This document shows positions 1 to 36,733 of a stretch of DNA of 64,000 nt, piece by piece. The stretch covers positions 5,580,001-5,644,000 of the forward strand of contig CM102289.1 of NCBI GenBank assembly GCA_046563655.1. The letters run 5' to 3'. Origin of the DNA: Yuukianura sp. NJ FZ-2021. Taxonomy: Eukaryota. Numbering within the stretch: position 1 is the stretch's first letter; every line of letters begins with the position of its first letter. Below the pieces are notes generated by a model. The model was not told the DNA's origin and did no database searches. It was given only the letters and a program-made list of their open reading frames with translations. The position numbers and the translations under genes were made by a program.

Positions 1-3000
1 CTGAATCCTATCCAAATACTCTCCTGTAACCACGTAACCTACATCACTCGGGGTCAAATAAGTTCTGTCTGTTGACCTCAAAAGGTCAATGACCTCTTCA
101 AGTGCCTTTTTCATGTAAATTTCAAACTCTACGCTACTTTTCACTCTAAATCCCATCCGATCTCCAAAAACTCCACCAACTACAGAAAGTACCGGATCAG
201 TTGATTCATTTGCAGGATGAATAGTTAATCCTGGAGAATCTTCTAAGATTGACCAATCGTCGTTCGACTCTTTGCTCCTCCCACTCATTACACCCAAGTA
301 GTTGAACAATATTGGCGGGAGAGGAACAGACTTGTCGTAGCCAATCAAATGACCGTATCCGAAGCCATGCGATGGTATGGCCCTCAGCGATTCTTTTGTA
401 ATTTTCAAAAGTTGAGCCAAGTTTTGTGTTCCAGCGATCTCCAATTTCACCGGAAACTTGGTTGTAAACCATCCAACAGTTCTGGAGTGGTCAACCGCCC
501 CTATGTCTTCTCTACCATGCCCTTCAAGTGTCACAAAAAATTCGGTGGAAGGAAACGCCCGTGACAATGCCAGTCCAAGAGCAGTTAGCAGAACATCGTT
601 CATTTCCGTATGATATACTCTGTGGGCATCAGACAACAAAAATGTCGTTGCAGCCTCGTCTAACGTAAAAGTAGCTTCGATTGCCGGTTTAGTGCCAAAT
701 TCAATTTTAGAGTTCATTGACCCCTGGGTCAACTGCTTCCAGTATGTCAGTTCTTCCGGATGGTCATTGGCATAACTCGAGCATGCGTCGACCCATTGTC
801 TGTAACTTGCTGTTTTTGGACCTAGACTCTGACCATGGTAAGCCGATTGCAGATCTTCCAGAATAATTCTCCAGCTAACTGCGTCTACAACCAAATGATG
901 AGCAGCGAGGAACAATCTGGCTCTTCCAGAATCATATCCATGAATGTAGCCTACAGTAAAGACACGCCCTTTTTCAAGGTCAAAAGAATCCTGCCAAGAT
1001 GTTAAGATTTTGCCCAACTCTGTGTCATTCTTCACTTTTTTGATATCAAGTACACGCAGCATGACCAATCTCGCCTCATTGTACGTCTGACTCTGTTGAC
1101 CTTGGAAGCTGGACCCCAGTATATCATGATGAGCCAAAACAGCGTGCAGTGCAGTAACTAATTTTTGTTTTTCCAGCGCTGGAACGTCAACAAGAAAAGC
1201 CTGATTCCAGTGCCCGGGAATTTCGAATTCTTTGGACCAAAACCAAGATTGAATTGGCAGTAGCGGAAAAGTGCCTTTGAGAATTCCAGTTTCACCAGAG
1301 AATTTGATTGGTTCAAAAGAATTAACATGGCAGAAGACATTGTCCGTTAGAGCCTGAATCGTTCTAAAGTCAAAAATATTTTTCACAGTTACGGAGAGCT
1401 GAAGTTGTTGGCGCATGCGTCCTGCTGCTTGGATACAAAGAATGCTGTCTCCACCCAAATAGAAGAAACTGTCTGTGATACCAACCGATTCCACTGGAAT
1501 TTTGAGCAACCCTGACCAAATTTCAGCAATGTCCAGCTCTGTTTGATTTCTCGGAGCCACTCGGACTCTTCCTTTCGTCACCAACTGAGATTCGGGATTC
1601 GGCAATTGTCGCCGATCCACTTTTCCGCCAGGAGTAAGTGGGACTTTGTCAATTTGGACAAACAGGGTAGGAATCGCATATGACGGTAGATGTCTTCCCA
1701 GTTCGATTCTCACTTCCTCTTCGTTTTTTACTTTTCCAACGTAGTAACCAATCAGAATCGTTCTTTCCTCTCCGTCATTGTTTTTACGCCCTTTGACCTC
1801 TACAACTGCTGCGTCAATTCCTGGAACGAGCTTCATGAAATGTTCTACCTCGCCTAACTCAATTCGAAATCCGTTGACCTTGACTTGAAAGTCTTTTCTG
1901 CCTACAAATTCCAGTTGACCTGTTACGCAGTCGCGGAAAACAAGGTCACCACTCTTGAATAATCTACCATTCCTGCCTACTTTTTTGTCCTCTTCAGTCT
2001 GAAACGGATTTGGAACGAAAGATTTGTCAGTCAATTCCGGCAAATTCAAATATTCCCGCGCCAAAGACTCTCCGCCAATGAACAGTTCGCCCAAGCAACC
2101 ATCAGGCAGAGCAGAGCCATTGGAATTTAAGACATAAAAAGTGTTATTAGCCAATGGGAAGCCAAGCACCGAGCTACGACTCCCCTCTATCTTGGTGTTT
2201 GTTACACACACTGCAGCTTCCGTCGGACCGTAGCGACTCATGACCTTGACCTTGTCTGACCAGTAGGCCGCTAAGGGTGGACTGAGCGTCTCTCCGCCAA
2301 TGACAATGCTTTCAAGGTCTGGATAAGTTTCTTTTGGCAGCGATGGCAATAAAGCAGGACGCGTATGCAAATGCGTTATTTTGTTGTCCTTGATGTACTT
2401 GGCCAAAGCGGGCCCTTCAAGAGCCAATTCCGAAGTGAGAAGATGAACAGTTCCACCAAGCAGAAGTGACGCAAAGATGTCAAGCGTAAAAGCATCAAAT
2501 GCGTAAGAAGAAAAGCTGGTCGTGATTGGTCGACGCCCTTCAGAGTATGTCGTAGCCTGGAAAGCTGCCACGGTATTCAAAATCGCTGAATGTTCAACGA
2601 GAATGCCCTTTGGTTTTCCCGTTGTCCCTGAAGTATAAATGCAATAAGCCAATGCCGATGGACTAACTTCTGGAAGTCTTATGGAGGGGTCACCAGAACT
2701 CTTCACGTCAATTAGCACAAGTTCAGCACAAATTGATTTCAAAAATTCAAAATTCCCGGAATTCGTAACCGCCAAAACGCGTTTTCCACTTTGTCCAACG
2801 TCTTTTATAATCAACTCAATACGTTCTTTAGGTGCTTCGTCATGAATCGGCACATAAGCCTTTCCCGCCAAAAGAACGCCCAAAATCCCAACGACAACTT
2901 CTTCATTTCTGTCCAAATACAGCAAAACTAAATCCGAATTTGAAACTCCCGCTTCCAAAATTTTGCGCGCCAAGGATTTGCTTCTCTCGAGAATATTAGC

Positions 3001-6000
3001 ATAAGAAAAGCTGATTCCATTGAAAACTATTGCAGTCGTGTCAGGAGTCGACTCGGCTTGACGAGCGAACCAATCAGTAACGGTGGTTTGTTTCCGCACA
3101 GGCGTGACGAATTTATTACGTTCAACAATCGTTTTAGTCAGCTGATCTTTGTTCATAAAAGAAAGCTTTTTGATTGGAAGCTGAGGATAAGAACCCGTTT
3201 GAGTCAAGATATGAGCAAAAGTGGCGCCAAAAGCAGCAATACCCTCTGAACTAAAAATGTTTGAATCGTATTTCAAATTGAAATACAACTGATCTTTGCT
3301 TTCTGTAACAATCAGGCTGAGCGGGTAATTCAAATGTTGGCGCGTACCAAGATGGCGCGGCATCAGTGAAGATGAAGTGACTTCAGGAAAGTTTTCATAA
3401 ACCAGTAAAGTTTCAAAAAGCCGTCTGCCCTGTTTCTGAATTTTGGACAAATCCGTGGCGGCAAATTGATTCGCTTTCAAAATCGTTTCTTGCAAAATTC
3501 TCAACGCCTCAAGAATAGAATGCTCTGAAAGTTCGTCATGATCAAATACTACTGGAAGTGTGTTGATGTACAGCCCAACCGAAGCTTCAATTCCCGGAAC
3601 GGGTAGAACACGACCGGAAACTGTCGTACCGACTACTGTCTTTTCACTCCTCCCAAATACACTCAGTGTTTTGTGCCATGCGTACTGCGTCGCAGTGTTC
3701 AAGGTCAAACCTTCTCGTTGCAACTTTTTCAAAATTTTCGTCTGACCTTTGCCTAGTTCAAAAATGTATTCGGCTGGAGATGTCACTGAACTTTGTTCGA
3801 GCAAATCTAGAGCACGACTGACATTGTGCTGAAACAAACCACGCAGGTCTAGCTGATCTGTCGCCTCGCATTGACTCCTGACCTGTTCCCAGTATTGCCC
3901 ATGTTCATTATTTACAACGGAACGTTCTAAATGTGCTTGTGCCTCTTCATAAGCAAAATCGACTTCAACCAAATCATGTTTTTCTGTTCCCAAGCACTCC
4001 TCATACTCGTCGTGAACAAAGTCCAGAAGGCGTGTCACACTCCATCCGTCCAAAATTCCATGATAGAAACTCAGCACAAAAACGGCTCCACCATCACCAT
4101 TTTCAATCAAAATTGTTCGAAAAAGCCCGGGTTTTTCCAAATCATAAGCCGTTGACCTATCAACTCCCAACACATTTTCAAGCCTCACCGACTCGTCTTT
4201 ATCAAAATGAGTCCAACAAAGTGAAGCCGATTTTTCGATAATTTGCAGGATCTCACCCGTCGTCCAATCAAATCGGAGGCGAAGAGAAGGAAATTTTAAA
4301 ATGGCGCGTTCCCAACATTTTTGCAATTTGAGGGCATCAGGAGCCTCTGGATAGTCAAGCAAAATTTGAACTGTGTAGGCGGGATCGTCAGGGTAAGTAA
4401 GCGAATGAAATAGAATTCCCTGTTGAAGTGAATTTGCTTTGTAGACTCCTACAATTCCGGACTCCGAAGTATTTTCTAAACGAGCCAAATTCAAATCTAC
4501 GTTGAGCGGAACATGAATCACAGATTTGATTCTGATGAGCGCGAAAAGATTTAAACAAAATTTGCTCAATCCTTCCTTCCATGTGGAATAAAAATTAAGT
4601 TCTCCATTTTCGTTGACAGTTGAATGAAAAAAGTGAGATGCAAAAGAAGGTTTGATGACAAAATGACCTTGACCTTTGCCCTCACTGTAAACAACGACTT
4701 GTTCCTGTTTTTCGAAAAAGTTGACCCCTGAAATTTCTCCCTTTGAACAGTCGCCAATGTTACCAGATTCGGGCATTTTGAATATCCCGCACTTTCTTTG
4801 TCCATTGCTCCCAACAGTAACGTAAGGAACTTCTGCGCGTGAGTCAAATCCAGAAATCGTGGCCAAAAACGCCGTCAAAATAATTTCAGAAGCCATCATG
4901 TCTCGTTTTTCAATGGCAAACAATGAGCGTGTTTCATCTTCAGTGAGAGCCAATGAATGAACAGGCTTGAGGTCAAAGGTCATTGACCCCAAGCTACTTT
5001 TGAGCGGAAAAAATGCTGGCAGTGTTTGACCATAAAGTACTGAAAGTAAGTTTTGTACAAAAGAACCCGCACCTTTTTCACTACAAACCTGCTTGTTGAC
5101 GACACAAAACAGTCGTCCGAAACCGTCCGAAAGCCCGCGAATCGTTCCGACAAAATACCCGGGTTTCTCTTGACCTACGCAACCCGCCCACTCTGAATAC
5201 AATTCCTTCACCTCTTGCTCTTCCATGAACTGGACATTGGCCGAAGAGCAGTTGACCTCTCCCGGGTACTCACTGTACGTCATAGTTTTAATGTCAAAGA
5301 TGTAGTCCAGTTGAGGAAAGTTTTTCAAAACTGAACTTACTGCGGTTTTTACAGCTTTGAGTCCCTGAACGTTAGCAGTCTGGACCAAAAACACATGAGC
5401 AGTAGGGTAGAGGCCAACGATCTCAGCATCAACATATCCAGTGTTACGCTGCCCGGCTGTTTCAGAACCGCCCAATGCTTCAATGTGCTCAGCTAGGCTT
5501 TTGATGGTTACGTAATCAAAAACGTCTCTAATGTTCACCTGAATGCCTACGTCTTTGCTAAGTCTCGAGGCGACCTGAATTGCTGAAATACTGTTTCCGC
5601 CTAGACTAAAAAAGTTGTCAACTAAACTAATTTGGTCTGATACGCCTAGTACTAACTTCCAAACATTTCTAATGTGTTCCTCCAGCGCAGTCAAAGTTTC
5701 AGAAGCTGGATACTGACCTTGGTGAGCTGACGGATCAGCCTTCGGCGATTCCTGGTCTGAGTCCTGAACGTGGTCTCCGTGGAGCGATGGCAGTTGTAGA
5801 GTTGATTCAATTGGCAGTGGCAGTAAAGTCGTTGGGTGAATAGCGTCAACCTTGGGGTCAAGTCCAGCAGAGCGCAGTTTCTCAATGGTGCTCAAAAAGT
5901 GTTCCAATTGGTTTCCGTGAAGACTCGTGGCAGTGAGACGTGTGATTGAGTGATGAAGAGAAGCAGCAAGAAAACTCTGAAGTACCGGTTTTCGTCCAAT

Positions 6001-6884
6001 TTCGAGTACGATACTTCCCTTCGGAATTTTTAGGAGACAGTCGTAGAAGAAGTAGGGCTGAGCTAACTGATCAATAAAGTAGTCGGCATCGACGACAAGC
6101 GAAGTGCTCTCTTGTTCGTGTCGCTTGGAAATCCATCGTTGAGTTTTCGTCAACGGAGTTGGCAGTACGGGTAGACCAAGGGGTTGGCAGAACTTGCGGT
6201 AGCCTTCAGTGAGACGCGTATGAGTGGGATGTTCAATTCCATCAAAAGCTACGTTGAAGATTCCCCGGTTGTTGAGATTGAGCAAATATTCGTCCATGAC
6301 TTCGGGATAGCCTGAGATAGTTACGGCCTTCGGGCTGTTTTGAATTGCGAGACAAACCCCTTGAGGTACATCGACCTTTGCCTCTTCCCATGACATTCCG
6401 ATGAGAGCCATTTTGAGCGGTGGGAGCGTTGCATTAGTAACGATGGACTCAGCAATACTCGCTAGGCCGATAGTTACTTCTTGAGTGAACGTTCCATCGG
6501 CATACGCTGCTCCGTACTCTCCGGCAGAAAATCCAATGAGTCCATCAAATTCCAAACCAAGTTCCCGTAGCAAATCCACAATTGCAACCTACAATATATT
6601 TAACATTGAATGAATTTATTGTACCGACAACAAATACGTAATTAGTCATGCAACGTTGCTTGAATTCTTACCTGAAATGCAGCTCGACAAGCAATGATAT
6701 CCTGAACGTCTGGTACGCCCCTCAGAACTCGCAAGAGATTGACCCCTTTCTTGTTGAGAATGGCATGAGACTTGAGAATAGATGCTCGGAAGACAGGAAG
6801 TTCCATGAAATCGTGGACAGAAACATACTCATCGCCAAATCCCGAGAAAACTAACCAAAATGGCGGACGAGATACAGACCCCAT
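1..6884 (-). CDS. Hybrid acyltransferase-NRPS (AT-T-degenerate E-C-A-T-E...), 3' end beyond window
   Basis: Exon 1 6884-6672 (MGSVSRPPFWLVFSGFG), phase-0 GT-AG intron 6671-6589, exon 2 6588 to <1 read by hand with no stop (2196 codons; absent from the ORF track because no stop lies in the window). Motifs: AT GFSAGE; T DNFFSLGGNSI (~5590); C FYHGILDGWS (~4050); A YTSGTTGKPKG, YGPTE, FKSGDL, QVKVNGFRIELGE, PGGKVDRR; T SFFYLGGDSI (~1450); E HHLVVDAVSW, TLEGHGRE, SRTVGWFTT. Confidence 0.93.
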
Positions 6885-8417
6885 TGTTGCTAATTTAGCT
6901 TCGGTCCTTTGAAGCTGTTGAGGTATCCAATTCCAAATGTTCTTAAAAACAAACGTTTATCTCCGTTGAATAAGCGTTTTGCAATAGTAACTCCCTCCAG
7001 TAATTCCCGATGGAGAACAAATTTCCTTCGAAGAAGTATTGGAAATGACGAGACTTAAGCTGGAGTCAAGGTTTAGTCAAAGTCATCCAGGAATCATGGT
7101 GAACATAACCGGTTTCCATTTCTCTAGACAAAATCAACCAACCTCGTTCCCAGTTAACTTTACTCACTGACACACTTCCGACGCGTCCAGACGAAACGAT
7201 AAAAGCTAGACAGGTCACCGCGAACGAACTAGAATTAAAGATGGAGGATGACGGTGAAAGAAGCAACAAAGACCGTGGCGCATGGCGGTGCTTGAGAGAA
7301 TTCGTTTTCCCGTGGAATTTAACTTTTTGTTTTTTGCGGGGTCGTACTATGAGATATCACACAACTCACTCCGCTTTCATGAAAAATTGACAGACTGCGA
7401 CATTTCAGAATTCAATAATTCTTTTAATTGTAGTAGTAATTGGAATATACTTATCAGCGTTTAATAACCTTAATTTTTGCAAAAAAACTTACAATTTGAA
7501 TTTTTTTTAAAAGTTCTTTTTTCCTTTTACTAGACACATTATCAAGTGTCCGGGACAGTGGTTTCCCTTTCCAGTATGCAAATGAAGCATGTAGCTCATC
7601 AAAATTCCAGAATACCACACAATCGATAAAAACTAGCCTAAGTTAAAGAATTTTAAAAACCAGACTTGTCAAAAACCGGTTTTTGGCACATGAAATCCGA
7701 GTGTAAAACCAAGAATCCGGCCCACTTGTCCAGTGCGACTCACCAAGGTTGGCAGTTTCACAAACTCCAGTGCGTTGATAAATGGATTTGATTTGTAGTA
7801 AAAAAAAAACCGGCTCCATTAGCATTTCAAATTTCGACTCTAATCCACCGGTTTCACAGTTTCACTGGACTACTGCGTGTACTTTCTCAGATTTTTTTTT
7901 GATTTTGAGAATAAAACAGAACAATAATTTTGAACGATAGCAAAAATAAAATTTTCAACGCTGCTCTCTAGACACAACGTGAAACCGGTTTGGGTTAAGA
8001 TTAACCGGTAATTGATTTCATGAACAAGGATTCACAAAAGACGTATGAAAAAAGGAAAGGTAGTCACTTTTCTTAGAATCTTGTTTAAAGACCTTAAATT
8101 TTACTTAGCTTTAAAAGTGAGTGTTAATTTTATTTACATAATCTTCTTTAATTGGAAGTTTACAATTTAACCCGTTTTTACGACACAAGTTGGCCGTCCA
8201 AATATATTTTTTATAGCCAAAGTGTCCATGACTGACGAGAGTGGACACGGGTGGTGTAGAGTGAGAGTGAGAGCACCCTTTGTCCGACACTCACCTCGAT
8301 CTCTATCGTAAACAAAAGTTACGAGAGAGACTTCATTTAAATTAGTAAATTGAACTCCCAATTAACTGTCACTGGACGGTGCCTACAGGATTACTTTGCA
8401 CCATCGCTCTATTCTCT

Positions 8418-11400: not shown

Positions 11401-13617
11401 GTCGTTTCTGCCATATTATCTGAATAACTGTGGATGGGCATTTGTCATCTCCACCATTGCAACTCATACCGCTCAACAAGGTAAAAAACGCTTTGTAAAA
11501 CCAAAGTTTCAGAGTATCAGTCAATCAAAACAACCTTTAAGCGAAATTGAATAATTCAATTCTTCTTTTCTCTAAGGATTTGCTCTTGCTTCGAACCACT
11601 GGTTGACAAAAGCTACAAGTCAATCAGAATCTTTAAACGAACGGGATTCCCATAGGAATCTTATGGTCTACGCTCTTCTCGGTATTGCACAAGGTAACTA
11701 AACAACTAAACATAATTGATTATGAAAGAATCAGAAGATCCATGATACTAATCTGGAAGTATCTCTGTCTGTTGTAGGGTTCTTCAACGCATGCTCGTCA
11801 GTGTTGCTTACGATTGGAACTTTGAGGGCTTCAGCGTCGTTACACAAGATGATGCTCCACAAGAGTCTTGGGGCCAAGATGGGTTTTTACCATATCAACA
11901 ATACAGCGAGCATCCTCGCTTCGTTTTCCAGAGACACAGGAGACACGGATAAACTTATGGGAAATGTATAATCTTTATTTCAAACGCCTGTTTTTGTAAA
12001 GGATACTATTTTATCATTATAACTTTTATTTCCAACTTTCAGCGACTAGTAGCGTGGCTCAGCTGTGCCTTCACAGTGGGTTCCACGGTGTCACTCATTC
12101 TGTTCCACCGCCCTCTGTTCTTCACTGTTGTCATTCCACTCACAACTGCTTACATGTATCTTCTTAAATATTTCCAAGCCAAAAACATGCAACTGAACCG
12201 CCTGGACATCGTAACACAAGCACCAATCTATGCTCAATTCAATGAGTCACTCATGGGAATGGAAACGATTCGGGTACTCAAAGCCGAACGCAGTTTCACT
12301 GCCAAGTTTCAGGGAAGTGTAGACAGACACCTCAGTTGCTACTTTTCTGCACTTGTCGCCATGAGGTGAGTTTCATCAGTTCTTAGTCCAATTTTGTTTA
12401 AAAAAAGAGGTCATGAACTAATATTGGCGCTGTTTAGGTTTCATTCTCTTTGTCTCGACCTTTTGGGCAACCTATTTGTGTTCTTCACTGGACTGTTTGT
12501 TATCTGGGGAAGTGAAGGTGCGTTGGCTGGTCTTTTAGGCGTTCTGCTCGGTTATGCCTTCCAAGTGACTGGAGCTCTAAACTCACTCATCGTGGTTACC
12601 TCGATGCTGGAAGGAGGAATGGCTGTCATCCAGAGAATCCATCAATACCAAAATCTCGCGCAGGAAGAGGAGGAGAGGGACGATTCATTCAAGATCACCG
12701 TTAATCCAGCAGACATCGTTGGAGAAATTAGTTTCAATCAATTGAATGCAAGGTATGCAGAAGACTTGGATCTCGTTCTGGAAGGAGTCACGGAGATAAT
12801 TCAGCCTAAGGAGAAGATTGGAATTGTGGGGAGAACTGGTTCCGGAAAATCATCTCTAATGTTAAGCCTCGTGCGTATTTTGGAGCCTGATGGAGGATCT
12901 GTGGCAATTGACGGAATTGACATAGCGAACATGAGGATAAGGGACTTGAGACGGATTGTTACGGTAGTGCCGCAAGTATGGACACAAGAATTTCAATTTA
13001 TCTTTTTTCTGTTGCCGAATTCCGAGTTTGCATTGTTTTTTTTTTCTTGTGGTCTTAGGATCCTGTCATTTTTTCTGGAACGGTGCACTTCAACCTGGAT
13101 CCCCTCAATGAGAGAAGCACTGAAGCGATTTGGAAAACATTGGAGAACGTTGGTCTCAAGGAATTCGTCCAGAATCTCCCCAATGGTCTCCAGCATTCTC
13201 TTGTTCCCAGGGATCCTATTTTCAGTTTCGGGCAACAACAACTTCTATCACTCGCCAGGGCTCTGCTCAGAGACACTCCAATTATGGTGTTCGACGAGGC
13301 GACATCTGTGATGGACGAAAGTTTGGAGGAAGTGATTAATCGATTAATGAAGATGGAATTTGGTCACAGAACAATTCTCGTCATTGCACATCGACTCAAA
13401 ACCATCATGGACGCCTCAAGGTTTTTAACATTTATTATTTTATTTATTATTTTTATTAAAATAACTAACTTCGATTTATTTGTAAATTAGGGTGATGGTT
13501 ATTCGAAACAAAAGAATCGCTGAATGCAGTCCTGTTTCAATTCTACTCAACGATCCAACCTCTCACTTTCATCGAATTTTCAACGGAGGATCTGATTCAA
13601 ATCGAAATCTCAACTAA
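8418..13617 (+). CDS. ABC transporter subfamily C (MRP-like), multi-exon
   Basis: ATG|gt micro-exon at 8418, then AETGKGNVCPEKKASFFSRLF. NBD1 GKSGSGKSS, LSGGQRQR, YFLDTPLSAVD; NBD2 GRTGSGKSS, FSFGQQQL, VFDEATS, IAHRL. Stop TAA 13615-13617. Confidence 0.92.
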
Positions 13618-13857: not shown

Positions 13858-15444
13858 TTACAAGAATTTGAGTGTGGGCATTGGAAGTGGACAACCTCTC
13901 AGACTCCGCTTGAGCTGAATCGAAACAATGCTCGTGGCAACAAGTTTCTCCTTGTTGCCACTCGGATCGTTGAACAATTCAGTGGGAACAGGCGGATCTT
14001 TAGAGTCACTTTGGTCGGCAGTAGCTGGAACGTAATTGACCAACAATTCGTTGCCACCGGAAGGAATGTAGAACAATGCATCCACGTTCCAGCACACTTT
14101 AGCACTCCGTTTTGGCACGAATAGTACGCGGTACCCTTCGGAAGTTCCAATTCTCTCCGCTTGTCCTAAGCAAACACATTCTTCTTCACGTTTCTTCCCA
14201 AGTATTTTTAGTTGGCCAATGCTGATTGGTTGTCCTTGTCCACCAGCCTTCACATGTTCAAGCATCGCTCCTTCTCCAGCCAATCGAATCGTGGGAATGT
14301 CACGAACAAATAACTGCGTATATTTTTTTAATTTGAGAAGTTCCGCCAAAGACTCCAGCGTGAGTGAGGCAAAGTCAAAGGACTCTGTTTCTTGCTCCCG
14401 AATTTCTGGATGTCCCTTCTTGACGAGGCTGGCATTGAACCGATATCGCTGCATTTCGTTCAAGTATTTCCCACGGTGAGTCTCTAAAACCACGTGACTA
14501 ATTTCCAAGTTCCTCCGAGCGAAGTCCTTGAAATAGTCGGGGGACAATAGAAGTTCAAATTGTTGGTTTCGCCTTTCTTCCACTTTTTCCAGAATTTTCT
14601 TGGAGTCGACGGTTGCCGTTGGTGAAGCATTTTGAATTTCGAGTGAAAGGGCATGAAGGTCAAGTGAATCCAGGTTCCGAATGTCTCCGATGAAAAGGCG
14701 ACCACCGGGCGAAAGAAGCCGAATGCTCCGAACCATGACATCTTCTAGATAAGTTACGTTTGGAAAATACTGAACGACGGAGTTCAGAATCACGAGGTCA
14801 AACTCTTGCTTAGTCTCTTGTGCTTCAAAATTTTTCAAAATTGCAATGGCATCGCCATGTTTGATTTCCAGCTTCGGATTTTCTCCAAATCGTGCCTGGA
14901 GACGTGCTACCGCTTGAGCTGACAAGTCCGTAGCCACAAACTGTCGACAACTAGCGTCCGCAATTATTTTGGACAGAACAAGACCACTTCCTGTTTAAAA
15001 AAAATCCAAAAGTCGATCATTTGAAAGTTTCTCTGAAAAAACATCAACTAGTAATTGACTCCATACAGGAGACTCGGAATTACCTGAACCGAGCTCCAGA
15101 ACTCTGGATGATCTTGACCTGAGGATATTTTCGATCGTTTGCTGCTGCCATTCTTCCATGTCAGGGATTGGGATTGGTTCACCGGTGAACGTGCTCTGCC
15201 ATCCATGAAACAGATTCTCTTCCATCTTTTCATACGTCCCATCGAACACGCCTTCCCAATGGATAAGGCTTTTTTCTATGTTCTGCGCAGAATCTGTGCT
15301 CATCTGAATGTGAACAACCGTCTCGTCTCCATTTTGTTCAATACTGAAACTCTGCACAGCCGCATTGTCCTTTAACCAACGCTCAACAAAGGCGTTTCTG
15401 AGGGCTACTGTTGTCAACTCCTTTGGACTGGGATTTTTGTCCAT
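13858..15444 (-). CDS. Stand-alone SAM-dependent methyltransferase of NRPS N-methyltransferase type (~497 aa, 2 exons)
   Basis: Exons 15444-15084 and 14990-13858 splice to VLELGSGSGLVL. Also FHGWQSTFTGEPIP..MEEW, DLVILNSVVQYFP, GGRLFIGDIRN, ELLLSPDYF and NEMQRYRF, typical of N-MT domains embedded in NRPS A domains. Confidence 0.88.
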
Positions 15445-15773: not shown

Positions 15774-16836
15774 TCAATTTTTTGCCTCCTCAATACTCCT
15801 GAGTTCCGTTCCCCAAGCTATCCGCTTCTGGAGTTGGATAGCAAATGAAGAAACTATAAATTCAAAAATGTCTGTTTAGTCACAAACGTCGAAAGAAATT
15901 GTGCTTAGATTTCGGTGCTTACACAAAGCATTACTTTCCTTTGTCGTTGGCTCGTTGTTGGTCAGAAAAATGACGACGACTGCTATGGCAATTGTTTCGA
16001 CGAATAGACCGAAGGCGAACACGGTTCCAAATCCTCCATATGTTAAAAGCTAACGTAAAAGCGACAGATAGGAATCCTAGTTCACAATGCTTTAAAGCTG
16101 TAGCAGAAAAATTTACCTGTGCTCCCAGCATAATTCCGAGGGGTTGTCCAAGTTGGAATGCCCTTAGTTAAAAATTTCAAAAATTTTACGAGGAATGTTT
16201 TTTGTTTGTTTGTTTTAGAAATTTCGATTTAGACATCTTTGTTCCTTACACATCCATGGTGCTGATTCGGAATGTCCGCTCCGATGGGGAAGTTGTTGAT
16301 ACGATATATTTGTAGCCAGATACTGCGTAGGCCACTCCTCCACCAAGAAATCCCACAGGAATGGACGCGACGAGCAGAAAGCCTGGTGGAAGCCAATACG
16401 GAAAGAGCGACACGAGGAAATACCCGCCTGCATAGAGAGCGAATCCAGTCAAAGGCAGGATCAGAGGAACCTTTGACCCCATCCGATCGTTCAGTTGACC
16501 CCAGATTAAGCCAAAAAATAGCGGAGGTGCAGCCTCCAGTAGGAGACGTAAGGAACCGAGAGACGCTGCCTCGGCCTCCACCGACTTCTCCAGGTCATGA
16601 TACTTCGTTAAGTCACTACACAAGGTCGCATTACCACTTTCCCCCAAGTGGTACAGACAGATCCTGTAGATGTAAAAGTTCTGAATGGTGATTTGGAGAG
16701 CATTGAGAACTACTGCTGTAGTGAAGACAATTACTTCTATGATAGTTAGATACTTCTGCGCAGACGCTTTGCTTGGCGTGATCGTTCCTCTGTCGTTTGG
16801 TTCTGGAATTAATGCAGAGGTTTCGTTGGATTCCAT
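15774..16836 (-). CDS. MFS transporter, SLC46/proton-coupled folate transporter-like; only the N-terminal 6-TM half seen, 3' end uncertain
   Basis: IWGQLNDRMGSK (MFS motif A-like), GFLGGG, SERTFRIS. Further exons give VAFQLGQPLGIMLGAQ and LLTYGGFGTVFAFGLFVETIAIAVVV, then a stop near 15774. Confidence 0.7.
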
Positions 16837-17694
16837 CTGTATAGATTCTAAAATGCTACGTTTATGAATCTGGAATATCAGAACTTGATCTCGACGGGGT
16901 CATTGAACGCTACTTGTCTGCGGGAGAAGCTTCTTTTTGCAAACGACAAAGCACGGGCTTGTCTGTGCTTGATAAATAACAAGTTTTAGATTCGCAAGTG
17001 TTTTACAAGTAAACCAACTTGAGTAACTAAAAAAATTTTTTTAACAAGAAAACGATAAAAATTTAACAGTTTTTTCCGCACTTTTTAGTGGGAATTTTGT
17101 GAAGGCGTTTTATTTTTGTTTTCTGGTTGATTAGGATGATTAGAATGCTGCATTGGGAATCTTTGTACTAGCAGGTCATGGTTGGGAAAATTCAGCTTTG
17201 TCCGTGACCTCTGGTTACTCTAATGACATGTACATGCCTGGAGTCGTGCCAGTGACCTTGCTAGCGGTGAACACGTAAAGTCTCATCATAGAATGGAGCC
17301 TAGGCATGAGTCCTGTCATTACACACCTCGACGGAATTCTTCATGTTGTCCAACCAGTTTTTTCCACTTTAAAGTAAAAAGAAGATGAAGATGATGCACA
17401 AGTGGAAAGCATTAAAACAAAAAACCAGCTCTGAATTATTCATGATTTTTTGGAAACTATCAAAGGAATACGCAGAGGTACACAGTAGAATCTGCACAGA
17501 TTCAAAATTTCTCTTCCTTCCCTCCACGATTTGGCCATATTACATAGTTGTAAACAGTGGCGCACCAACCAAACATTCAGGTTTAGTGCGTTAGTGCAAC
17601 TGATCTTCGAGGATTGCTAAAGTCCAACATAAGTTAGTCAGAGGTCACAACTTGTACAGAACCTGTGCAGAGGTCAAGAGTCAACGAGCCAATA

Positions 17695-24088: not shown

Positions 24089-25890
24089 TTATTGTCTGCG
24101 TTTGAGTGACAACCACAGGCCGCTGAGTGGTTTGAAATGGGCGCCACTGGATCCTGCTCCCGGCATTACCGTTTTGGCGGAAGGTTCCAACTTGAACTTC
24201 AAAATCAAATTGCTAAGTGCTGCTTTCGTTTCAGCCAGGGCAAATCTCGTTGCAATGCAACTACGCGGCCCAATACCTAACAAAAGGCATAGCTATAATC
24301 AGCAATTACTAACTACTAGATTAAAACAAGAATTTTAATTAAGAAGGATTTACCAAAAGGAATGTTCGTGTATTGATTGATTTTTCCTTTGTTTTCTGCA
24401 TTGAACCTCTCGGGGTCAAATTTGTCAGGATCGGAAAAGTGACCTGAAATAATAAAATAACACTTCAACTCAAGAAATTTTCATTCTTTTTTTAAAAAAG
24501 AGTCTGAAAACCTTACGTTCATCTCGTTGTAACCCATACTGAGGTACAATGATGAGTGTGTCTTTCTCAATAGTTAATTTAGAGTTGGGCACTTTGAAAG
24601 GCTTGACCGTCATGCGTTCCAGTATAATGCTGTTGGGCCACTTGCGTAGAGTTTCCTGGATGACTTTGTCCAAGTATTGTAAGGTCATCACAGTATCATA
24701 GTCCAACTTCCCAGCACCTTTGACCTCCGCTTCCTTCAGTTCTTCGTACAATTTTTGTTGTACTTCTGGATGGAACGCCAACTCTTGTGCAGCCATCACC
24801 AGCTGAGATACGACTGTCGTCACGCCTGCAAAGAAAAACAAAAGACACTGCGCAAGGACCAAGTCCTCTGTCAGCTGAACGCGGCCATGCGAACTCTTGA
24901 TTTCCTGCTGTTTTTCAAAATTACTAAGGTCATCGGAGTCAGGCGGCGAGCCAGTAGTAGGTGGGGCAGTACTCGTTCGAGCATCCATCAGCAACTGCAG
25001 CAAATCGTCTCGTTTTTGCCCCGTTTTCTCTCGATGTTCAATTGTCTTGTTGATGACTTGTCGAAAAAATCTACCGGCTTCTTGATCCGTGATTGGAATG
25101 TTTAAAATTTCAAAAATTAGAGGGAACGTTAGACGGAGCTTGAAAAGAACTTGTTTCTTGAATGATGCAAATTGATTTTGAAATCTTCTGGCGTATTTTC
25201 CGAATTCGGATTCCTCTTTGGAGAAACTGGACGTTTCGAGTCCAAAGGCACAGGATGAGATGACATCCATTGCATATCGGGTCATAAGGTCATGGAATTC
25301 TGGATCTTGTCCAAGAGCAACTTCTTGGTCAATGAATTTTGTTAACTTTTCCGATGCATCGGTGAAGATGGAATACATTCTGCGAATCTTTCCGGAGGAA
25401 AAGGCGGGAGTTAGAGTAGATCTCAAATCCTTCCAGAATTGACCTTTGGTGTGTGTTAGGATTAGACCAAAAAGAGGATCAGTTTTGTCCAAGTTGGCAA
25501 CACGACGGTCCACAAAGCAATCGAAATCTTTTACCTTAAATTTAAATGGAGTTTTTTTAAGTTATTAAAATTTTCAAAATTGAATGATTTTTTTAAAGAG
25601 CCGAAACTAACCATAATGTGCTTGATGAGATCTGGGTCAGTGACGTATAGCACTGGCAATGAGCCTTCCATGTACCCGGTGTACCCACCACACCGTTTTT
25701 TCTTGATGGTATCGTACACTAGAAATTCAAATTCGTGTCGCGGGACCTCCCATCTTGATAACTTCAGTTTTGCCGGGTCAAAGACTTTGACTCCTCTTCT
25801 CTGCCAGTATGTCTTCGCTTTGAACCAATTTTTGAATTTGCCGCTGAAAAGCAGCAGGGTAATCACGACAGTTACTACGAGCCAGAACAT
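24089..25890 (-). CDS. Cytochrome P450, CYP3 clan (CYP6/CYP9-like), 4 exons
   Basis: N-terminal TM anchor, WKDLR, ETLRKW (ExxR), FDPERF, spliced heme motif PFGIGPRSCIA; I-helix FFFAGVTTV. Confidence 0.92.
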
Positions 25891-26254: not shown

Positions 26255-28154
26255 TCATTTCCTGTACTCCACATTAACCAGAAGTGGGCTTCCAAGAGCA
26301 AATGCCTGAGGGGTTTGGCTACAGCGGCTAAATTTAAACTTTTGCAAAAGTTGAACTACGGTGATTTTCAATTCAGCTTTAGCCACTCTGTAGGCAATAC
26401 AATTCCGTGGTCCTGCGCCTGCGCATTAAATAAAACATTTCAGTGCCTAATATTAATGACCTTTGACCTACGAATGACCTTGACTTACCAAATGGAAGGA
26501 ATGTGAAAGGATTTCGCTTCTTTATGTTCTCAGGACTGAATCTATCGGGATCAAACTTTTGCGGGTCAGGGTAGATTTCTGAAATTTCAAATTTTAGTAA
26601 TTTTTGAGGTTCAACTTTTTAACAATTTTTTTCAGCGTAAGCTGCGATGCCGGATTTACCTGGATCATGATGAATCGCATGAATTGGAACAATGATCTGC
26701 GTATTCCGCGGAATAGTGACATTGTATTTTGGCGAATGCACTGCCGCATTTGTCCTCCTCTCTAGATGTAGGACTCCATACTTTCGAGTACTTTCCTGAA
26801 TTACTTGTTCCAGGAAGCCTAATTGCAAAATGGAGTCCAATGGCCAGGTAGGTTCGTTGTTCTCCAAGGTTTGAATTTCCCGGAACAACTTTTCTTGTAT
26901 CTCTGGATTGTTGACGAGTTCAAAAATGACGCAAGTGAAGCCTTCTAGCATATTACTGGACTGTGCAGTGAACAGGCTCATGGCACTGCCCACCATGTGC
27001 TCTTCAGTTGGCACGAACTTTGAATTAGTGTAAACCAAGGCCTTGTTAACCGTTCCGGTGCTTACATCCCTATTGTCATCAACTTCTTCCTGAAAACAAA
27101 GCAGAGAAGATGTCAAGAAAATTTAAACCGTTTTTTTCCACTTTTCACTTTTTATAGCATTTTAAAATTTTAAGAAATCGTTGACCTGCTCAGTGTTGCC
27201 CTTCTTCACCAAAGTCATCATTCGTCCAACAAAGGTGTTCCAGTTGGACATGACGCCATCTTCAAGATTCATTCTGCACTGTCGCAGAACATCTCGGAAG
27301 AAATTTACAGCCTCTGGGTTAAGGGCATGCACTTTCAAAAAATTCCCCACCCACGGATACTTCAAAATCATGCGCCATTTCCAAGTTTGAAATGCCGAAG
27401 AAGGGGCTGCGTGCATTCTGCCGGCAAAGGAGAAAAAGCCACCGGGTGGGTCATCGTAGGCTCCACTTTTCGTCCCATAAATAATTTGAACTGCGATGTC
27501 GGTGACGAAGCGATGAAACAACTTTCTCATGTCCACGGGTTCGTTTCCTGCAGCCTCCGAAATGAGCCGAGTCAGCTCTCGAGCGGAATCGGATATCATT
27601 GGACACATTGCTCGGATTTTTCCGGTAGTGAACATTGGGTTGATTGCTGATCGGATGTCTTTCCACTCTTGGTTTTTAGCATGAAAGAGAGCCCTTCGTG
27701 CTATGGGGTCACTCAACTCTGCAGAATTGACACGACGGTTGACACAACTCATGAAGTCTTTAACCTTGAGTAGGAAAAATACAAAAAAAAATGGTAAAAT
27801 GGTGTGACCTTGCCTAAGAAAAACCCGGAGATGAAATTTGAACCCATGACAGATCGATTGGCTTACAAAGATTTGTTCCAGAAGATCGGTTCCGTAAACG
27901 TAGAGAAGTGGAACGCCAGTTTCAAAAATTCCGGCAAACTCCGCGTGACCTCTGCGCTTCATCTCTTTGTACTTGGCAATCTCAATGTCGTAACGCTTGA
28001 AGACTGAATGTTGACCAAACTGGGACAAGCCAAGGGCCTCCGTGTCCACGAAGGGAACATTCCTCCGTGCCCAGTATGTTTCCCGGGGGTCCCTTCGCAA
28101 GTACCACCAAAGTCCGACGATTAAAGCAAATAGTAATACAAATTCCACCAACAT
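26255..28154 (-). CDS. Cytochrome P450, CYP3 clan, atypical I-helix, 5 exons
   Basis: MLVEFVLLFALIV anchor, WKDIR, ESTRKY, FDPDRF, spliced heme motif PFGAGPRNCIA; I-helix LFTAQSSNM. Stop TGA 26255-26257. Confidence 0.9.
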
Positions 28155-28794
28155 TTCACAGGAAGTCCAGAGTACGGTACGTGCGCTAGGTGCAACAGCA
28201 AAACTAGAACTGGCCGCTGCCATGCCGGTTTATTCAAAATCATTTTTTTTTACCAAAAAGGGCAAAACAGGTTCTGAAACGAGAAACATCGTATGAAACA
28301 AGAACGAGATTTGATCAAAACTAAAAAACCGAGATCGAGAGTTTCTGAATTAAAAAAAATTGTTTTCTGTTCATTATAATTTCAATTCTCACATTTCCAA
28401 AAATTCACTAGAAATAGAAACTGAAATAAAGGAATTCAAACCGGTACATTTTTTATTCATTCATTTTATACACATAGCATATAAGGTAGTAATAACATTG
28501 CAGAAAAGTTACTCTTTTACTTCTAAATAAAAAGCAAAAACCAATCACCGATTTTGAAAATACTGAGCAATTTTGCAGAAGCTTGGGTAGTAACATTAGT
28601 ATAAAACTAACCTTTTTGAATGAAGAACTGTGAGTTAATTTTTTTAAAGTTACTTTTCAACTCGAAAAAACAAACGGAATATTTTATGGTTTCTGTTTTT
28701 CTGTTACATCTAATTTTCTTATACTAATTTCACGCATTGCCTCCAGTTTAAAAAGCAGCGTATTTCTCTGGATTTTGTGACAGCTTTCAAAATT

Positions 28795-31700
28795 TTAAAT
28801 GGCAGTAAGCAAATTTTTGGCAACGGCAGTGATTGTTTGTTGTTCTCGAAGTTTACCACGCGGAATGACAATTCCCAACTCCTTCGATAGCCTATTTGTA
28901 ATTTCCAATTCCATGAGGGAATCCATACCATAAAGTGCAAGGGAGTGGCCTCTGTCAATCGCTTCATCATCTGGCAAAGACACGTACATTCTAATGCACT
29001 TCTCAATCAAAGTCTCAAGGTGCCCCAATTTCTCATCTTCTCCCGCCCCCTTAACCTTCAAAACCATTTCAGCCAAAACGTTACGTTTTCCCCCACTGAC
29101 CTCTGTCCCCTTTGTGCGTGACCCCACCGTGACCCCCTTCTTCTGCGCACGCACTTCCGTAAAATACTCATGCAACTTGGGATATGCAACCACTCCCATT
29201 TTTTCTGTGTCGAATCGGAGAATTGTTGCTTGGTCAAGACCTAGGCGCATGGCTCTTTCAAGGGCTGCGATTCCCTCCTTTGGCGTAAACCAGTGGATTC
29301 CACTGCGTTCGGTCAAATACTTGACCTGTTCAGGGGAAATATGATTTACTGCAATGCCGACATCTAACCAACCGCCCCAATTGATACTCGTCGCAGGTAA
29401 CCCCAGCTGATGCACGCGATACTTTGCAAAAGTGTCTAAGAAATTGTTAGCGGCAGTGTAGGCTGCTTGACCAGCAAAACCTACGTTAGAGGCAATTGAG
29501 GAAAAAAGAACAAAATGGTCGAGGTCAAAGGTCAAACTTTCTTCATGTAAATTCCAAGTTCCTTCGACCTTGGACTGAAAAGCTTCTTCAAAGTTAGTTA
29601 CAGAGAGGTCAGAAATTACACCATCTCGTAACAGACCAGCCGAATGGAAGATTCCTTTGAGTGGCGGGAGTTCAGATTTGATTTTTTGAAATAGTTCTTT
29701 CACTCCCGCCTTTTCACCAACATCCGACAGCATGACGACGGCAGAATCACCAAACTGAGCCAATTTGTTCAACACTTCGGGATCAGTCGGTTCTCGCCGA
29801 CCAGTTAAAATTACTTTACCAGCTCCCTGTTCCAGAAGCCACTCGGCAACCACAAGTCCAATCCCCCCAAGCCCCCCTGTGACCAAATAGGAACTCTCGG
29901 CATGAAACAATCTTGTTCGAGAACTCATATGCAGAACGTACTTTCCAATGTTCTTGCCCTCACTCATCTCGTTGAGCGTTCTGGCTAGCTGGTCAACACT
30001 TTTAACCTTGTATGGCATTCCTCTAATGCTTCCAGAAGCTAACAACTGTTCTATTGGAGTCACGTCTCTACCAAGATCCGTCATAAGGTCATAAACACTG
30101 TAGGTTACGTCGGGTCGGAGGTCATTGACCTCCTCTTTAGTCCAAGTATTGAATTTACTCATCTCAACAAATCTCCCGCCACCATTTTTTCGCACAACGT
30201 TCAAACTGGCTTCCTTAAACCCTTCAGCTGTAATCGTGTTTACGACAAGATCAACGCCCTGACCTCCAGTGTCCTTTAGTATTTCTTGTTCAAACCGAGT
30301 GTCAATTGAGTCATAAACGTGTTCAACACCGAAGACAGTGGAGAGGTAAGCTCTTTCTCTGTCACTTCCTGCTGTGGCATAGACAGTAGCCCCGACGTGT
30401 TTGGCCAATTGAATCACCGCAAGGCCGAAACCGTCCGACGCACCGTGAATCAACAAGTGATCACCGCGTTTGAGTTTTCCTGTTTCGTAAACACCGAAAT
30501 AAGCAGTGCAAAGTGGAACCGGGAGAGTTGCGGCTTCGTCGTAACTCATCCAGGAAGGAATGCGTAGGATGCAGGAAGCCGATTCAGGAGTCACGTGACT
30601 TTGAATTTGGCTGGTTTGCTGGAAAGAGCCACAAAGACGATCTCCAATGGCAAATCTACTGCCTTCACCAACCTGTTCGACTATCCCTGCAAAGTCTGTT
30701 CCAGAAACAGCTTTCTCTTGTCCACCAACGTCACTGTGAATGGCAACCTCTAGTGAATTGGGAGAAATGGAGTTGACCTTGATCACTGTGTCAGTGACCT
30801 CGAACGGTTTTAGGAGTTTTGGTTCATAGCGTCTGAGCCCACCGACTCCAGTAGCTGTGAGGCTAAACGGAGCCGCTGGTGGGTGGAACTCACCGGGCAT
30901 GAAGGTGGGATTAAACGGAACAAGACGTGCACAGACAGCTTTTCCTTCACGGATGACCACTTCCCGTTGAATGCCAGCATGACTCACGTGAGCCGTGATT
31001 TGGTGCGCAAGCGCAGAATGATTGTTTGTGTACTCCGTTTGGTCAATGTCAAGTCCAATTGCGTCAATATGTGGATACTCGCTAACAAAAGTTTTTAAAG
31101 CTCCTTGGAGAACTGTTCCCATAAAATTGGAGCCTAGAGATCCTGTCCCGTTCGAAATTGACCCTTGAGATACTGCCACAAATTTCTTTGTTTCTGCAAG
31201 GGAACCAACAAATTTCAGTGTATTCAAAAATCCACCAATCAGATTCTTTGTTACATTTTTGTCCAAATGACCTGACCCCTGAGTAGCTTCGTCTCCCAAA
31301 CCCCAGAGACTCACTACTCCTTCAAGCGTAGGAAATTCCTCAGCCAGCTCTTGGTGGTGGGCCAAATTTTGTGGGTCAAGGGTCACGTGAGAGTAACTAA
31401 AACAGTAGTCTGTATCTGCCAATACTAGCATTGCCCTGACTCCGAGGTCATCCATGATACTCTGTTGAACAGCTTCAGCAAGGGCCTGGACCTTGGTTGG
31501 TGCAAAAATGAGCCAATCAATTGTTTCTGTTTTGTGAATAATCTGCGCATGACCATTGTGAGTCAGTTGGGGAAGGGGAATCCATGATTCTGTGTAAAAG
31601 TCAAGCAGTTGCTGATTGCTTCTTAAATTGGTTTCAAAGTCGGCTTTTGTTGTGATCAGTTGAAGGATTTTGGAAGCGGCGACGAGCGTTCCTTCGCTGT

Positions 31701-35187: not shown

Positions 35188-36733
35188 TGTTGAATTTTTC
35201 AATTCTGAAAAATAAAGGCAAAAGCACACTTGAGTCGGATAATTAACAAATGACAAACTTTGGAAATGTTAGTTAGTTAGTTTGAAAATGAAAACTGAAA
35301 ATTATAGCAGGGCTGTAACGCATTCTAGCATTTTTTTTTTTGGAAGTTGGGAAAGTAACACTTTTATGCTTACATTTGATGGAGTCCTGATTGAGTGATG
35401 GTGTTGGCGGCTGTCGTTTAGAAAACGGCTACCGTAGGAATTGCCCTGGAAGTTTCAAAAAAAAAATAAGCTATAAAACGGCAGATCAGTTGAGATAAAT
35501 GGAAAATTCTGAACTGAAGAGAAAATTAACTAGTAAAATGGAACATAACAATTAATTTAAATGCAGAAGCTTTTACTTGGAACAGAGTGAAACTATATAG
35601 GTGCGGTGCTCTAACCCTGGTGGACGATACTTCCAAAGTAGCGTGAAGATGCTGCCTGCACTCCCACCAAGCCTCAAATGAAAGTTACCAGCAACTTGGA
35701 AACTGGTTCTGGAAGTTTATAGGTACACCGGCATTCCAAGTCCTCCAGCTACTGAAAGCATCGTTCTCAAGGATATTACCAAACTAGTTACTCTTCCTAC
35801 CAAGAGATTCGGCTAGTTTTTATTACTAATATTAATTAAATATTAAATCAATATTAATGAAATAATATTAATAATAATATTAAAAACAATAGTAAATTAA
35901 TATTAATAAAATACTATTAGTTTACGAATTCATAAAAATATCAATTGAACAGTATAATTTATTTTCATCGCATCAAACAAAAGTAACATCAATGTGTAAC
36001 TTTGTATAATGTGTAGCTGTTGTCAGCATATTCTACTGGTCTGATTGTGACCAACAGACCATGCCATGACCAAGTGACAGAGACCACGTCGTCACCCGGT
36101 GATTTCCATTAACCTAACATGGAAAGCAGAAATTCCGGTCTTCGTCCGTCTGTCTCTTCTGCCAGAAAAGTCTGCCGCAGCCTAAAATGACCTTGACGTA
36201 AATGCGAAGAGAATTCCGGCCACTTACTTTTCAGCCTCCTTTGTAGCAAAAACCAGAAATACTTAAATACTTATACGCTAAAACCAGTTTCACAGGAATT
36301 TAAAACACAATTCTGGAAGAATGAACATGGATGGTTTGAAAAATCATTATTATTCCCTCAGTCTACCATCTACAACCGGAATCCACCTTGCTTTACGCAA
36401 TTGTAATGAATTCAGCCAAAAATGAATAATTAATGGGAACCATCGTAAACTTCGATTGGATTTGATTTGTGGATGAGTTTTTACGAGTTTCTCTCGAATA
36501 ACTTACCAAACAACATGTATTAATTTTCACTTTTGAGAATTCCCAACAAAAGCCTTTTTTACTCAAATTGAGGTGCGGTTTGAGCCGCAAGTAAAAATGT
36601 CGTAAAAAATGCAGTAAATTAAAAGAAAACCATTAGCCAGGATTCAATAATTAACATACTAGTTTCCAAATTCTTTTTTTTTTGTTTTAATTAACTTACG
36701 GTTATTAATGAAGAATAACCATTTGGCTATTTT

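Follow-up and report, generated by a model that had tools for sequence, protein, structure and literature searches.

The loading didomains of the DEBS and avermectin polyketide synthases (PKSs), written AT(L)-ACP(L), consist of an N-terminal acyltransferase (AT) followed by a carrier, the acyl carrier protein (ACP). The AT lacks the carboxylate-binding Arg, and monocarboxylic acyl groups carried on coenzyme A (CoA) serve as starters. Among the nonribosomal peptide synthetases (NRPSs), the first condensation (C) domain of PvdL is preceded by an acyl-ligase-T start, T being a carrier domain, and SrfA-A has a starter C domain. Animal NRPS and PKS genes have mostly been described as wholesale bacterial imports. 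In sections of PMC10531068, the nematode nemamide synthetases PKS-1/NRPS-1 are described as a union of PKS domains derived from fatty acid synthase (FAS), namely AT, ketoreductase (KR) and ketosynthase (KS) domains, with NRPS parts of bacterial affinity, and work cited there derives the PKS domains of the C. elegans hybrid from animal FAS. Here we analyse the 5′ end of an NRPS gene in a 64,000-nt stretch of the Yuukianura sp. NJ FZ-2021 genome (GCA_046563655.1, contig CM102289.1, positions 5,580,001 to 5,644,000; hereafter the window, numbered from 1), where an AT that by sequence belongs to the animal FAS family heads a bacterial-type NRPS.

We consider it fairly probable that this 5′ end encodes an acyl-loading starter module, in which a FAS-type AT encoded by a pair of exons, followed by T1, a carrier domain of the NRPS type, is fused in frame to a bacterial-type NRPS. 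The visible protein has the order AT, T, an unmatched region of ~340 aa, C, adenylation (A), T and an epimerization (E)-like domain, and thus shows the architecture of both a loading didomain and an acyl-initiated synthetase, with an N-terminal Arg-less AT, then T1, and then C and A in the same protein. In the reaction envisaged, the AT would take a non-carboxylated acyl group from a thioester onto its own Ser92. The simplest donor would be an acyl-CoA, for example acetyl or a short-to-medium fatty acyl, and an acyl-ACP would be less likely. The acyl group would then move from Ser92 to the phosphopantetheine of T1, borne on Ser404, and the downstream C domain would couple it to the amino acid that the A domain activates, giving an N-acylated peptide. 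A transacylase would in this way take the role that a fatty-acyl-AMP ligase or a starter C domain fills in bacteria. If the AT is active, this would be a third route to the initiation of N-acyl (lipo)peptides, beside the acyl-AMP ligases and the starter C domains, and a compact, naturally re-specified malonyl/acetyltransferase (MAT) domain of FAS would be of interest to megasynthase engineering.

The locus combines three known kinds of system, the loading didomain, the acyl-initiated NRPS and the FAS-derived domains of animal hybrids, and it differs from each of them. The AT of DEBS and avermectin is of the bacterial PKS type and feeds a KS, whereas the AT of the window is of the FAS type and stands before an NRPS C domain. 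As in PvdL and SrfA-A, an acyl group on the first carrier would be joined to the first amino acid by the first C domain. In contrast to these, loading would be a thioester transacylation and not an adenylation or a direct use of acyl-CoA or acyl-ACP by the C domain, and the insert of 340 aa lies between T1 and C. The nemamide synthetases have an entire FAS-derived PKS part fused to NRPS modules, while the window has a lone Arg-less AT as starter. The gene is an example of mixing at the level of single domains, a FAS-family transacylase minus its malonyl-binding Arg heading a bacterial-type NRPS, with an intron whose position recurs in a distant relative.

The combination of such an AT with an NRPS appears to be without a counterpart in the collections searched. 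An AT of this sort was found in 0 of the 120 relatives of the C-A-T part that were listed, and a C or A domain like those of the window in 0 of the 150 best relatives of the AT, in collections whose gene calls on eukaryotic contigs are fragmentary. A literature search found no paper on a FAS-type AT as an NRPS starter. The main text of PMC11258130, on bdelloid rotifer clusters, does not contain the terms 'acyltransferase', 'acyl transferase', 'fatty acid synthase' or 'loading', although the drawings of its Fig. 5b and its supplements, which lie outside that scope, may show an AT. One supplement file of PMC10531068 holds no PKS_AT, acyltransferase, T1PKS or Acyl_transf entry.

Structure of the gene and order of its domains

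The NRPS gene runs on the minus strand and its 3′ part lies beyond the window edge. One intron was seen in the visible 6.9 kb. The predicted splice junction, AAFQ/VAIVDLL, rebuilds the FAS motif in the alignment with solved structures, and the predicted spliced AT of 330 residues can be aligned with insect FASs over residues 6-329, gap-free across the junction. On exon 2, the profile Acyl_transf_1 (PF00698) scored 59.1 bits against a cut-off of 32.7, with exon-2 residues 1-220 matching profile positions 71-290 of 319. Since this match starts at profile position 71, exon 1 provides the missing N-terminal 70 positions. The other 259 of the 330 AT residues and the entire visible NRPS form one unbroken open reading frame (ORF), so the fusion is independent of splicing. 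An error in the 5′ gene model, in which exon 1 is unused or an extra upstream exon exists and the AT is truncated or carries an added N-terminal part, is very improbable. Within the ORF at 6642-6956, 24 in-frame codons are open upstream of the ATG, but the FAS homology begins at residue 6 and is continuous across the splice junction, the exon boundary is identical in the contig of a relative (L001, see below), and nothing resembling a KS or any other FAS-like coding sequence was found upstream.

An initial annotation of this DNA had covered the range 5480-6884. This range fits the gene and its strand, as the ATG begins with its A at 6884 and the first carrier domain closes at 5481/5482. Its further claims about the layout also held. 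The only intron seen in the gene lies in the AT part (6671-6589, GT..AG), and a carrier domain with the motif GGNSI follows directly, the PP-binding match beginning ~45 aa past the AT. The gene has no KS. With two FAS N-termini as tblastn queries, no KS was found within 27 kb of the AT, and the sole KS match (33868-35151) lies in a separate PKS gene.

By sequence the NRPS part is of the bacterial type. The nearest relatives of T1 were carrier domains of bacterial NRPSs (41-47% identity over the T1 part). The C-A-T part (residues 700-1700) matched bacterial NRPSs from Desulfobacterales, Motilimonas, Chryseobacterium, Serratia and Xenorhabdus, with 34-36% identity over 99% of the query. The 120 C-A-T matches listed included a single animal protein, an NRPS of Rotaria socialis with 35% identity, and there were no nematode proteins among the best relatives of either AT-T or C-A-T. 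The top matches of the C domain among solved structures were McyB (1e-38), the first C of PvdL (second-best, 1.3e-32) and the 461-aa chain of surfactin synthetase (3e-21). NCBIfam agreed with an NRPS core. The last domain is named E-like after its motif AHHLVVDAVSW.

Between T1 and the first C domain, exon-2 residues 370-713 matched no family in a Pfam scan. In a phmmer comparison with all fetched proteins, this region gave marginal matches (E 0.006-0.1) to the N-lobe region of NRPS C/E domains, and an AlphaFold2 (AF2) model of the 344 aa had a mean pLDDT of 34.5 and was unusable as a fold. The region is possibly a decayed C/E-like half-domain without the HHxxxDG motif, which we offer as a guess.

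The gene appears to have been resident in the genome for a long time, judged by an intron position shared with a relative, a uniform base composition and a contig from a second study. The GC content of third codon positions (GC3) was 0.38-0.45 throughout the AT, each part of the NRPS, the PKS and the neighbouring animal-type genes, which makes contamination or a very recent transfer less likely. A multi-exon Cys-loop receptor gene, whose ligand-binding domain was matched at E 3e-41, marks the DNA of the window as animal; in the ESM Atlas, the receptor exon fell under Eukaryota with Chordata/Nematoda only. In the second study, a 986-nt contig spans 5821-6806 without gaps and with 28 letters different (~97% identity), and its DNA thus holds both AT exons and the intron. 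Upstream of the NRPS gene, 66 nt at 7488-7553 are swapped for 65 other letters in that study. Across 3000-8000 of the window, one sample gave many short contigs with 90-99% identity (145 pieces in X1 and 104 in X2), which suggests multiple diverged copies or alleles of the gene region in that sample.

Family and relatives of the acyltransferase

On sequence grounds the AT is of the animal FAS type and is not a bacterial PKS AT. When all solved structures were searched with the AT, 33 sequences were matched at E <= 0.01. The first 11 were eight animal FASs (mouse, pig and human) and three animal FAS-like PKSs (AFPKs) of Elysia, at E 7.1e-32 to 7e-28. The 12th was the fungal LovB (2e-08), followed by bacterial PKS ATs and a malonyl-CoA:ACP transacylase (4.9e-07 to 7.9e-03). 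Among 123 fetched proteins, the spliced AT scored 121-160 bits against 23 proteins of FAS architecture and at most 52 bits against the ATs of bacterial hybrid PKS-NRPSs. Signature columns were compared in an alignment of 170 ATs with 143 FAS-type and 24 bacterial comparison rows. The motif YADG after the active Ser is present in the window AT; its Tyr was found in 141/143 FAS-type and 3/24 bacterial rows, and its Asp in 142/143 and 0/24. At the position of mouse F553 the window AT has Ile64, and 22 of the 24 bacterial rows have Gln.

Two trees were made, with FastTree for the 170 ATs and with IQ-TREE for 48 ATs under LG+C20+F+G4. In the IQ-TREE analysis, 40 FAS-type rows, the window clade included, were separated with 100/100 support from eight bacterial modular or hybrid PKS ATs, among them the AT of the window's own PKS. 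The same split between FAS-type and bacterial ATs had a support of 100 in the FastTree analysis of all 170 rows. The pattern of an animal FAS MAT domain, proposed in the initial annotation, was thus borne out by the structure ranking, the bit scores, the signature columns and a phylogeny in which the AT does not group with bacterial PKS ATs. Inheritance of the AT-T unit from a bacterial KS-AT-T-C-A hybrid was also considered and was rejected, as the ATs of those hybrids reach at most 52 bits compared to 121-160 for FAS ATs. Hybrids of this kind, of the Acidobacteriota type, cover 93-100% of the AT-T query with 23-26% identity.

The animal FAS MAT domains (mouse 5my0, pig 2vz8, human 2jfd) are the best solved relatives, with E 7e-32 to 1e-30 over 244 of 248 residues, and have the Ser-His dyad, YADG and a residue other than Gln at position 553 in common with the window AT. 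In contrast to them, the window AT has no preceding KS or linker domain, carries Ala at Arg606, Phe in the GHS motif and the sequence GFGDEY, and is followed by an NRPS carrier and not by a dehydratase (DH) domain. The ATs of the Elysia AFPKs (EcPKS1/2, PDB 9ctk, 9cq1) are nearly as close (E 3e-28 to 7e-28) and are likewise FAS-derived domains in secondary metabolism, but the AFPKs keep the whole KS-AT-...-ACP frame, whereas the window has the AT alone and within an NRPS. In the portion of PMC10764717 consulted, AFPKs are reported from molluscs and arthropods only and NRPS fusions are not treated.

Searched exhaustively, 1.84 billion representatives yielded 2516 matches at E <= 0.001. Only two were close relatives of the AT, P0124 (54-55% identity) and P0125 (39%), both of them metagenome gene calls. 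The next matches were bacterial PKSs with several ATs, where the score adds up 4-5 of them; FAS-like proteins with 30-36% identity came after these. With the AT alone as the query, the search for longer proteins gave just two weak matches (E 3e-4). P0124 and P0125 keep the Ser and the His, have Val and Ala, respectively, at the Arg column, and have Phe and Tyr as the residue preceding the Ser; across the three ATs, 79 of 248 columns are invariant. In the IQ-TREE analysis they and the window AT formed a clade (100/100) with a long stem, 1.19 changes per site.

P0124 is encoded on a 20-kb contig and P0125 on a 1960-nt contig (L001), where an intron has the same position, between the same two residues, and phase 0 (TTCCAA/GTAAGT ... 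CCCAG/ATTGGG). Past the AT, on the same strand, L001 encodes ankyrin repeats (Ank, E 8.7e-17) and then the probable start of an A domain, at an E of 0.015 that is below any threshold; no carrier domain was seen in the stretch that separates the AT from the repeats. This suggests an architecture AT-Ank-A. The window AT, P0124 and P0125 form a small AT family, which is apparently combined with adenylating enzymes in different domain layouts.

The initial annotation had proposed that a host FAS domain was fused to a microbial-type NRPS. The FAS type of the AT, the bacterial type of the NRPS and their union in one ORF all stood, but the host as the donor was not supported, given the basal placement of the AT within the FAS type and the outcome of an approximately unbiased (AU) test. 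The window clade was sister to P0173 (98/77), and the group so formed was separated from the other 36 FAS-type rows with only 91/52 support. P0173 has a full FAS architecture including a pseudo-KR, and its AT lacks the Arg, with Leu in its place, and has Ile at position 553; in the ESM Atlas it fell into generic AT-DH clusters. A tree that keeps the window clade outside the other 37 FAS-type rows was not rejected by the AU test (p 0.347, log-likelihood difference 7.06). Under the constraint, a branch separated the window clade plus the bacterial ATs from the rest, which in an unrooted tree equals the window clade as the first FAS-type branch, so the failure to reject it speaks to the nesting of the clade and not to its FAS-type identity. 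From these sequences, an Arg-less FAS-like paralogue such as P0173 would be an equally good donor as the host FAS.

The FAS-type group also includes a 99/98 clade of ~2400-aa FAS-like megasynthases of the 'animal type' (P0202, P0232, P0239, P0237, P0266 and P0272). Some of these carry labels of bacterial metagenome-assembled genomes (Gemmatimonadales, Gammaproteobacteria), and the clade is placed amid the FAS ATs of animals. P0202 stands for 11 members at 90% identity, found on separate contigs, and is therefore probably no one-off contaminant. Near the base of the FAS type, P0173, P0214 and P0219 carry both KS and AT (KS-AT only in P0214 and P0219), and the Arg of their ATs is replaced by Leu, Met and Leu, respectively.

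Active site and the proposed loading reaction

Residues were called from an alignment with mouse FAS and from the alignment of 170 ATs. The dyad Ser92-His194 is kept in the window AT and Arg606 is replaced by Ala, and both features are common to the two diverged relatives except for the Val of P0124 at the Arg column. The motif GHSLGE reads GFSAGE and retains Ser92, a Ser shared by all FAS-type (143/143) and all bacterial rows (24/24). YWRG is SIAE in the window AT, which places Ala117 opposite Arg606; Arg occupies this column in 136/143 of the FAS-type rows and in 23/24 of the bacterial ones. LAFHS pairs with HPTHT, which means that the catalytic His is conserved as His194 (His in 143/143 and 24/24 rows). 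The first reading of this DNA had listed a retained catalytic Ser, a loss of the malonyl-binding Arg in SIAE and a change from AFHS to HPTH. The Ser was recovered at the position of S581 of mouse FAS and the Arg was Ala in both alignments, but the third claim was off by one in register and the catalytic His is intact.

According to passages of PMC6954729, S581 and H683 form the catalytic dyad of mouse FAS, and R606 holds the carboxyl group of the extender unit. Removal of R606 shifts the specificity, and the rat R606A variant showed an increased octanoyl transfer, for which Rangan and Smith are credited there.

Several observations weigh against a function in acyl loading. In the same passages of PMC6954729, the murine wild-type MAT is better at octanoyl transfer than murine R606A, so the loss of the Arg alone predicts neither the substrate nor a good fatty-acyl transferase. 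The His that precedes the Ser in GHS, present in 137/143 FAS-type rows, is Phe91 in the window AT, and GMGSQW reads GFGDEY, having lost a Gln that 119 of the 128 FAS-type rows without a gap at this column retain; from the sequence, both changes could impair catalysis. The long stem of the window clade could reflect relaxed constraint as well as a new function. Since no carrier was seen after the AT in L001, the pairing of AT and T is no fixed trait of this AT family. Finally, with ~340 aa between T1 and C, T1 may not feed the C domain in a simple way.

Some of the same observations could be read as signs of decay, the AT being a remnant without catalysis, or an N-terminal domain with a purely structural role, of an NRPS that initiates otherwise. 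The Arg, the His of GHS and the Gln of GMGSQW are all gone, the stem is long, and the region next to T1 looks decayed too. We regard this as improbable, because the Ser-His dyad, GxSxG, YADG and the 79 of 248 invariant columns persist in three relatives at 39-54% identity, there is no stop or frameshift across the 330 codons of the AT or the frame of 2196 codons, and canonical splice sites are retained in two lineages.

Trans-AT PKSs have AT-like proofreading hydrolases, and the AT of the window could similarly be an acyl hydrolase or off-loader that clears or releases acyl groups from T1. Such an enzyme would have the same fold and dyad with an altered active site, and the sequence does not separate a transferase from a hydrolase. 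This is nonetheless highly improbable, as the N-terminal place right ahead of the first carrier is the typical site of a loading domain and the AT is the only T1 loader seen in the gene. A starter module that loads a non-carboxylated acyl group onto T1 is thus the reading we favour.

The PKS without a thioesterase and the surrounding cluster

A second megasynthase gene of the window encodes a fully reducing PKS. By sequence this PKS is of the bacterial type, with its KS-AT part matching CurL at 4.1e-150 compared to 7.5e-73 for mouse FAS, and its AT keeps the Arg and has Gln at position 553. The PP-binding match of its ACP covers residues 2100-2151 of 2157, and the ORF stops six residues past it without a thioesterase (TE).

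This raises a special case of the proposed loading reaction, suggested in the initial annotation, in which the NRPS AT would act as a chain shuttle that moves the polyketide from the ACP of the TE-less PKS, 22 kb away, to T1. In fungal emericellamide synthesis, a free acyltransferase serves for a comparable hand-over. In passages of PMC6954729 the FAS MAT is described as a ping-pong enzyme acting between thioesters and ACP, the PKS ends directly past its ACP, and PKS, NRPS, tailoring and transport genes are clustered within 35 kb. On the other hand, no sequence feature ties the NRPS AT to the PKS ACP, the two ATs are of unrelated type (24% identity, E 2e-05), and an additional PKS exon with a release domain is possible. 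L001 has this AT type without a PKS in view, though on a contig of just 1960 nt. Taken together, we find such a shuttle unlikely.

A wider scenario, which we also hold to be doubtful, would be that an animal lineage grafted an Arg-less FAS-family transacylase onto a horizontally acquired bacterial-type NRPS, that the transacylase shuttles chains from the ACP of the TE-less PKS to the peptidyl carrier protein (PCP) of the NRPS, and that the AT family is a reusable animal 'loader cassette'. If true, a native-type domain would be the adaptor that links two foreign megasynthases.

The PKS, the NRPS, two P450 regions, a methyltransferase, an ATP-binding cassette (ABC) transporter and a major facilitator superfamily (MFS) gene lie inside 35 kb, with the synthases and the P450s on one strand. 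The coordinates of all features are collected in the table.

Table. Features of the NRPS gene, the cluster and the remainder of the window (residue numbers of the NRPS domains refer to exon 2 where so marked)
Feature	Position	Strand	Description
Exon 1	6672..6884	-	71 codons including the start, ends CAG; N-terminal AT part with GFGDEY motif; Ile64 at FAS F553 position
Intron	6589..6671	-	83 nt, GT..AG, phase 0, 29% GC, stops in all three frames
Exon 2	1..6588	-	single open frame of 2196 codons, exits window
AT, exon-2 part	5812..6588	-	Pfam Acyl_transf_1 and PDB alignment; Ser92 6528-6526, Ala117 (Arg606 position) 6453-6451, His194 6222-6220, YADG
AT-T linker	5677..5811	-	~45 aa, acidic and polar; between AT alignment end and PP-binding start
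T1 carrier, NRPS-type	5482..5676	-	Pfam PP-binding, exon-2 residues 305-369; GGNSI, Ser404 5592-5590
Region without family match	4450..5481	-	~340 aa between T1 and first C; place of HHxxxDG reads NKQVCSEKG
Condensation domain	3145..4449	-	Pfam E 2.3e-52, exon-2 residues 714-1148; YHGILDG, His 4062-4060
Adenylation domain	2047..3069	-	Pfam AMP-binding E 1.8e-62, exon-2 residues 1174-1514; TIGR01733 324.9 bits, cut-off 317.4
T2 carrier	1339..1536	-	second PP-binding, exon-2 residues near 1700-1750; LGGDSI, Ser 1446-1444
Epimerization-like domain of Condensation family	1..1275	-	Pfam Condensation E 1.1e-54, from exon-2 residue 1772; AHHLVVDAVSW; clipped by window edge
ABC transporter	12370-13311 and adjoining ORFs	+	between NRPS and PKS
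Methyltransferase ORF	13858-14994	-	between NRPS and PKS
MFS fragment	16246-16899	-	between NRPS and PKS
P450 regions, two	24470-25561; 26619-28229	-	between NRPS and PKS
PKS, KS-AT-DH-ER (enoylreductase)-KR-ACP	28795-35268	-	fully reducing; intron-free ORF of 2157 codons
Cys-loop receptor ligand-binding exon	52326-53012	-	beyond the cluster
Short-chain dehydrogenase ORFs, tandem pair	59138-60007; 61838-62770	+	beyond the cluster

Bdelloid rotifers have many NRPSs with variable architectures (in sections of PMC10531068), and their PKS-NRPS clusters are described in the main text of PMC11258130 as induced by a fungal pathogen and present in several copies, with ABCB1, MFS and P450 genes at their flanks. 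Compared by gene content only, the window is similar to these clusters, with PKS, NRPS, ABC, MFS and P450 genes and several variant contigs in one sample. The gene content of the window between 8500 and 28300 is that of a biosynthetic cluster.

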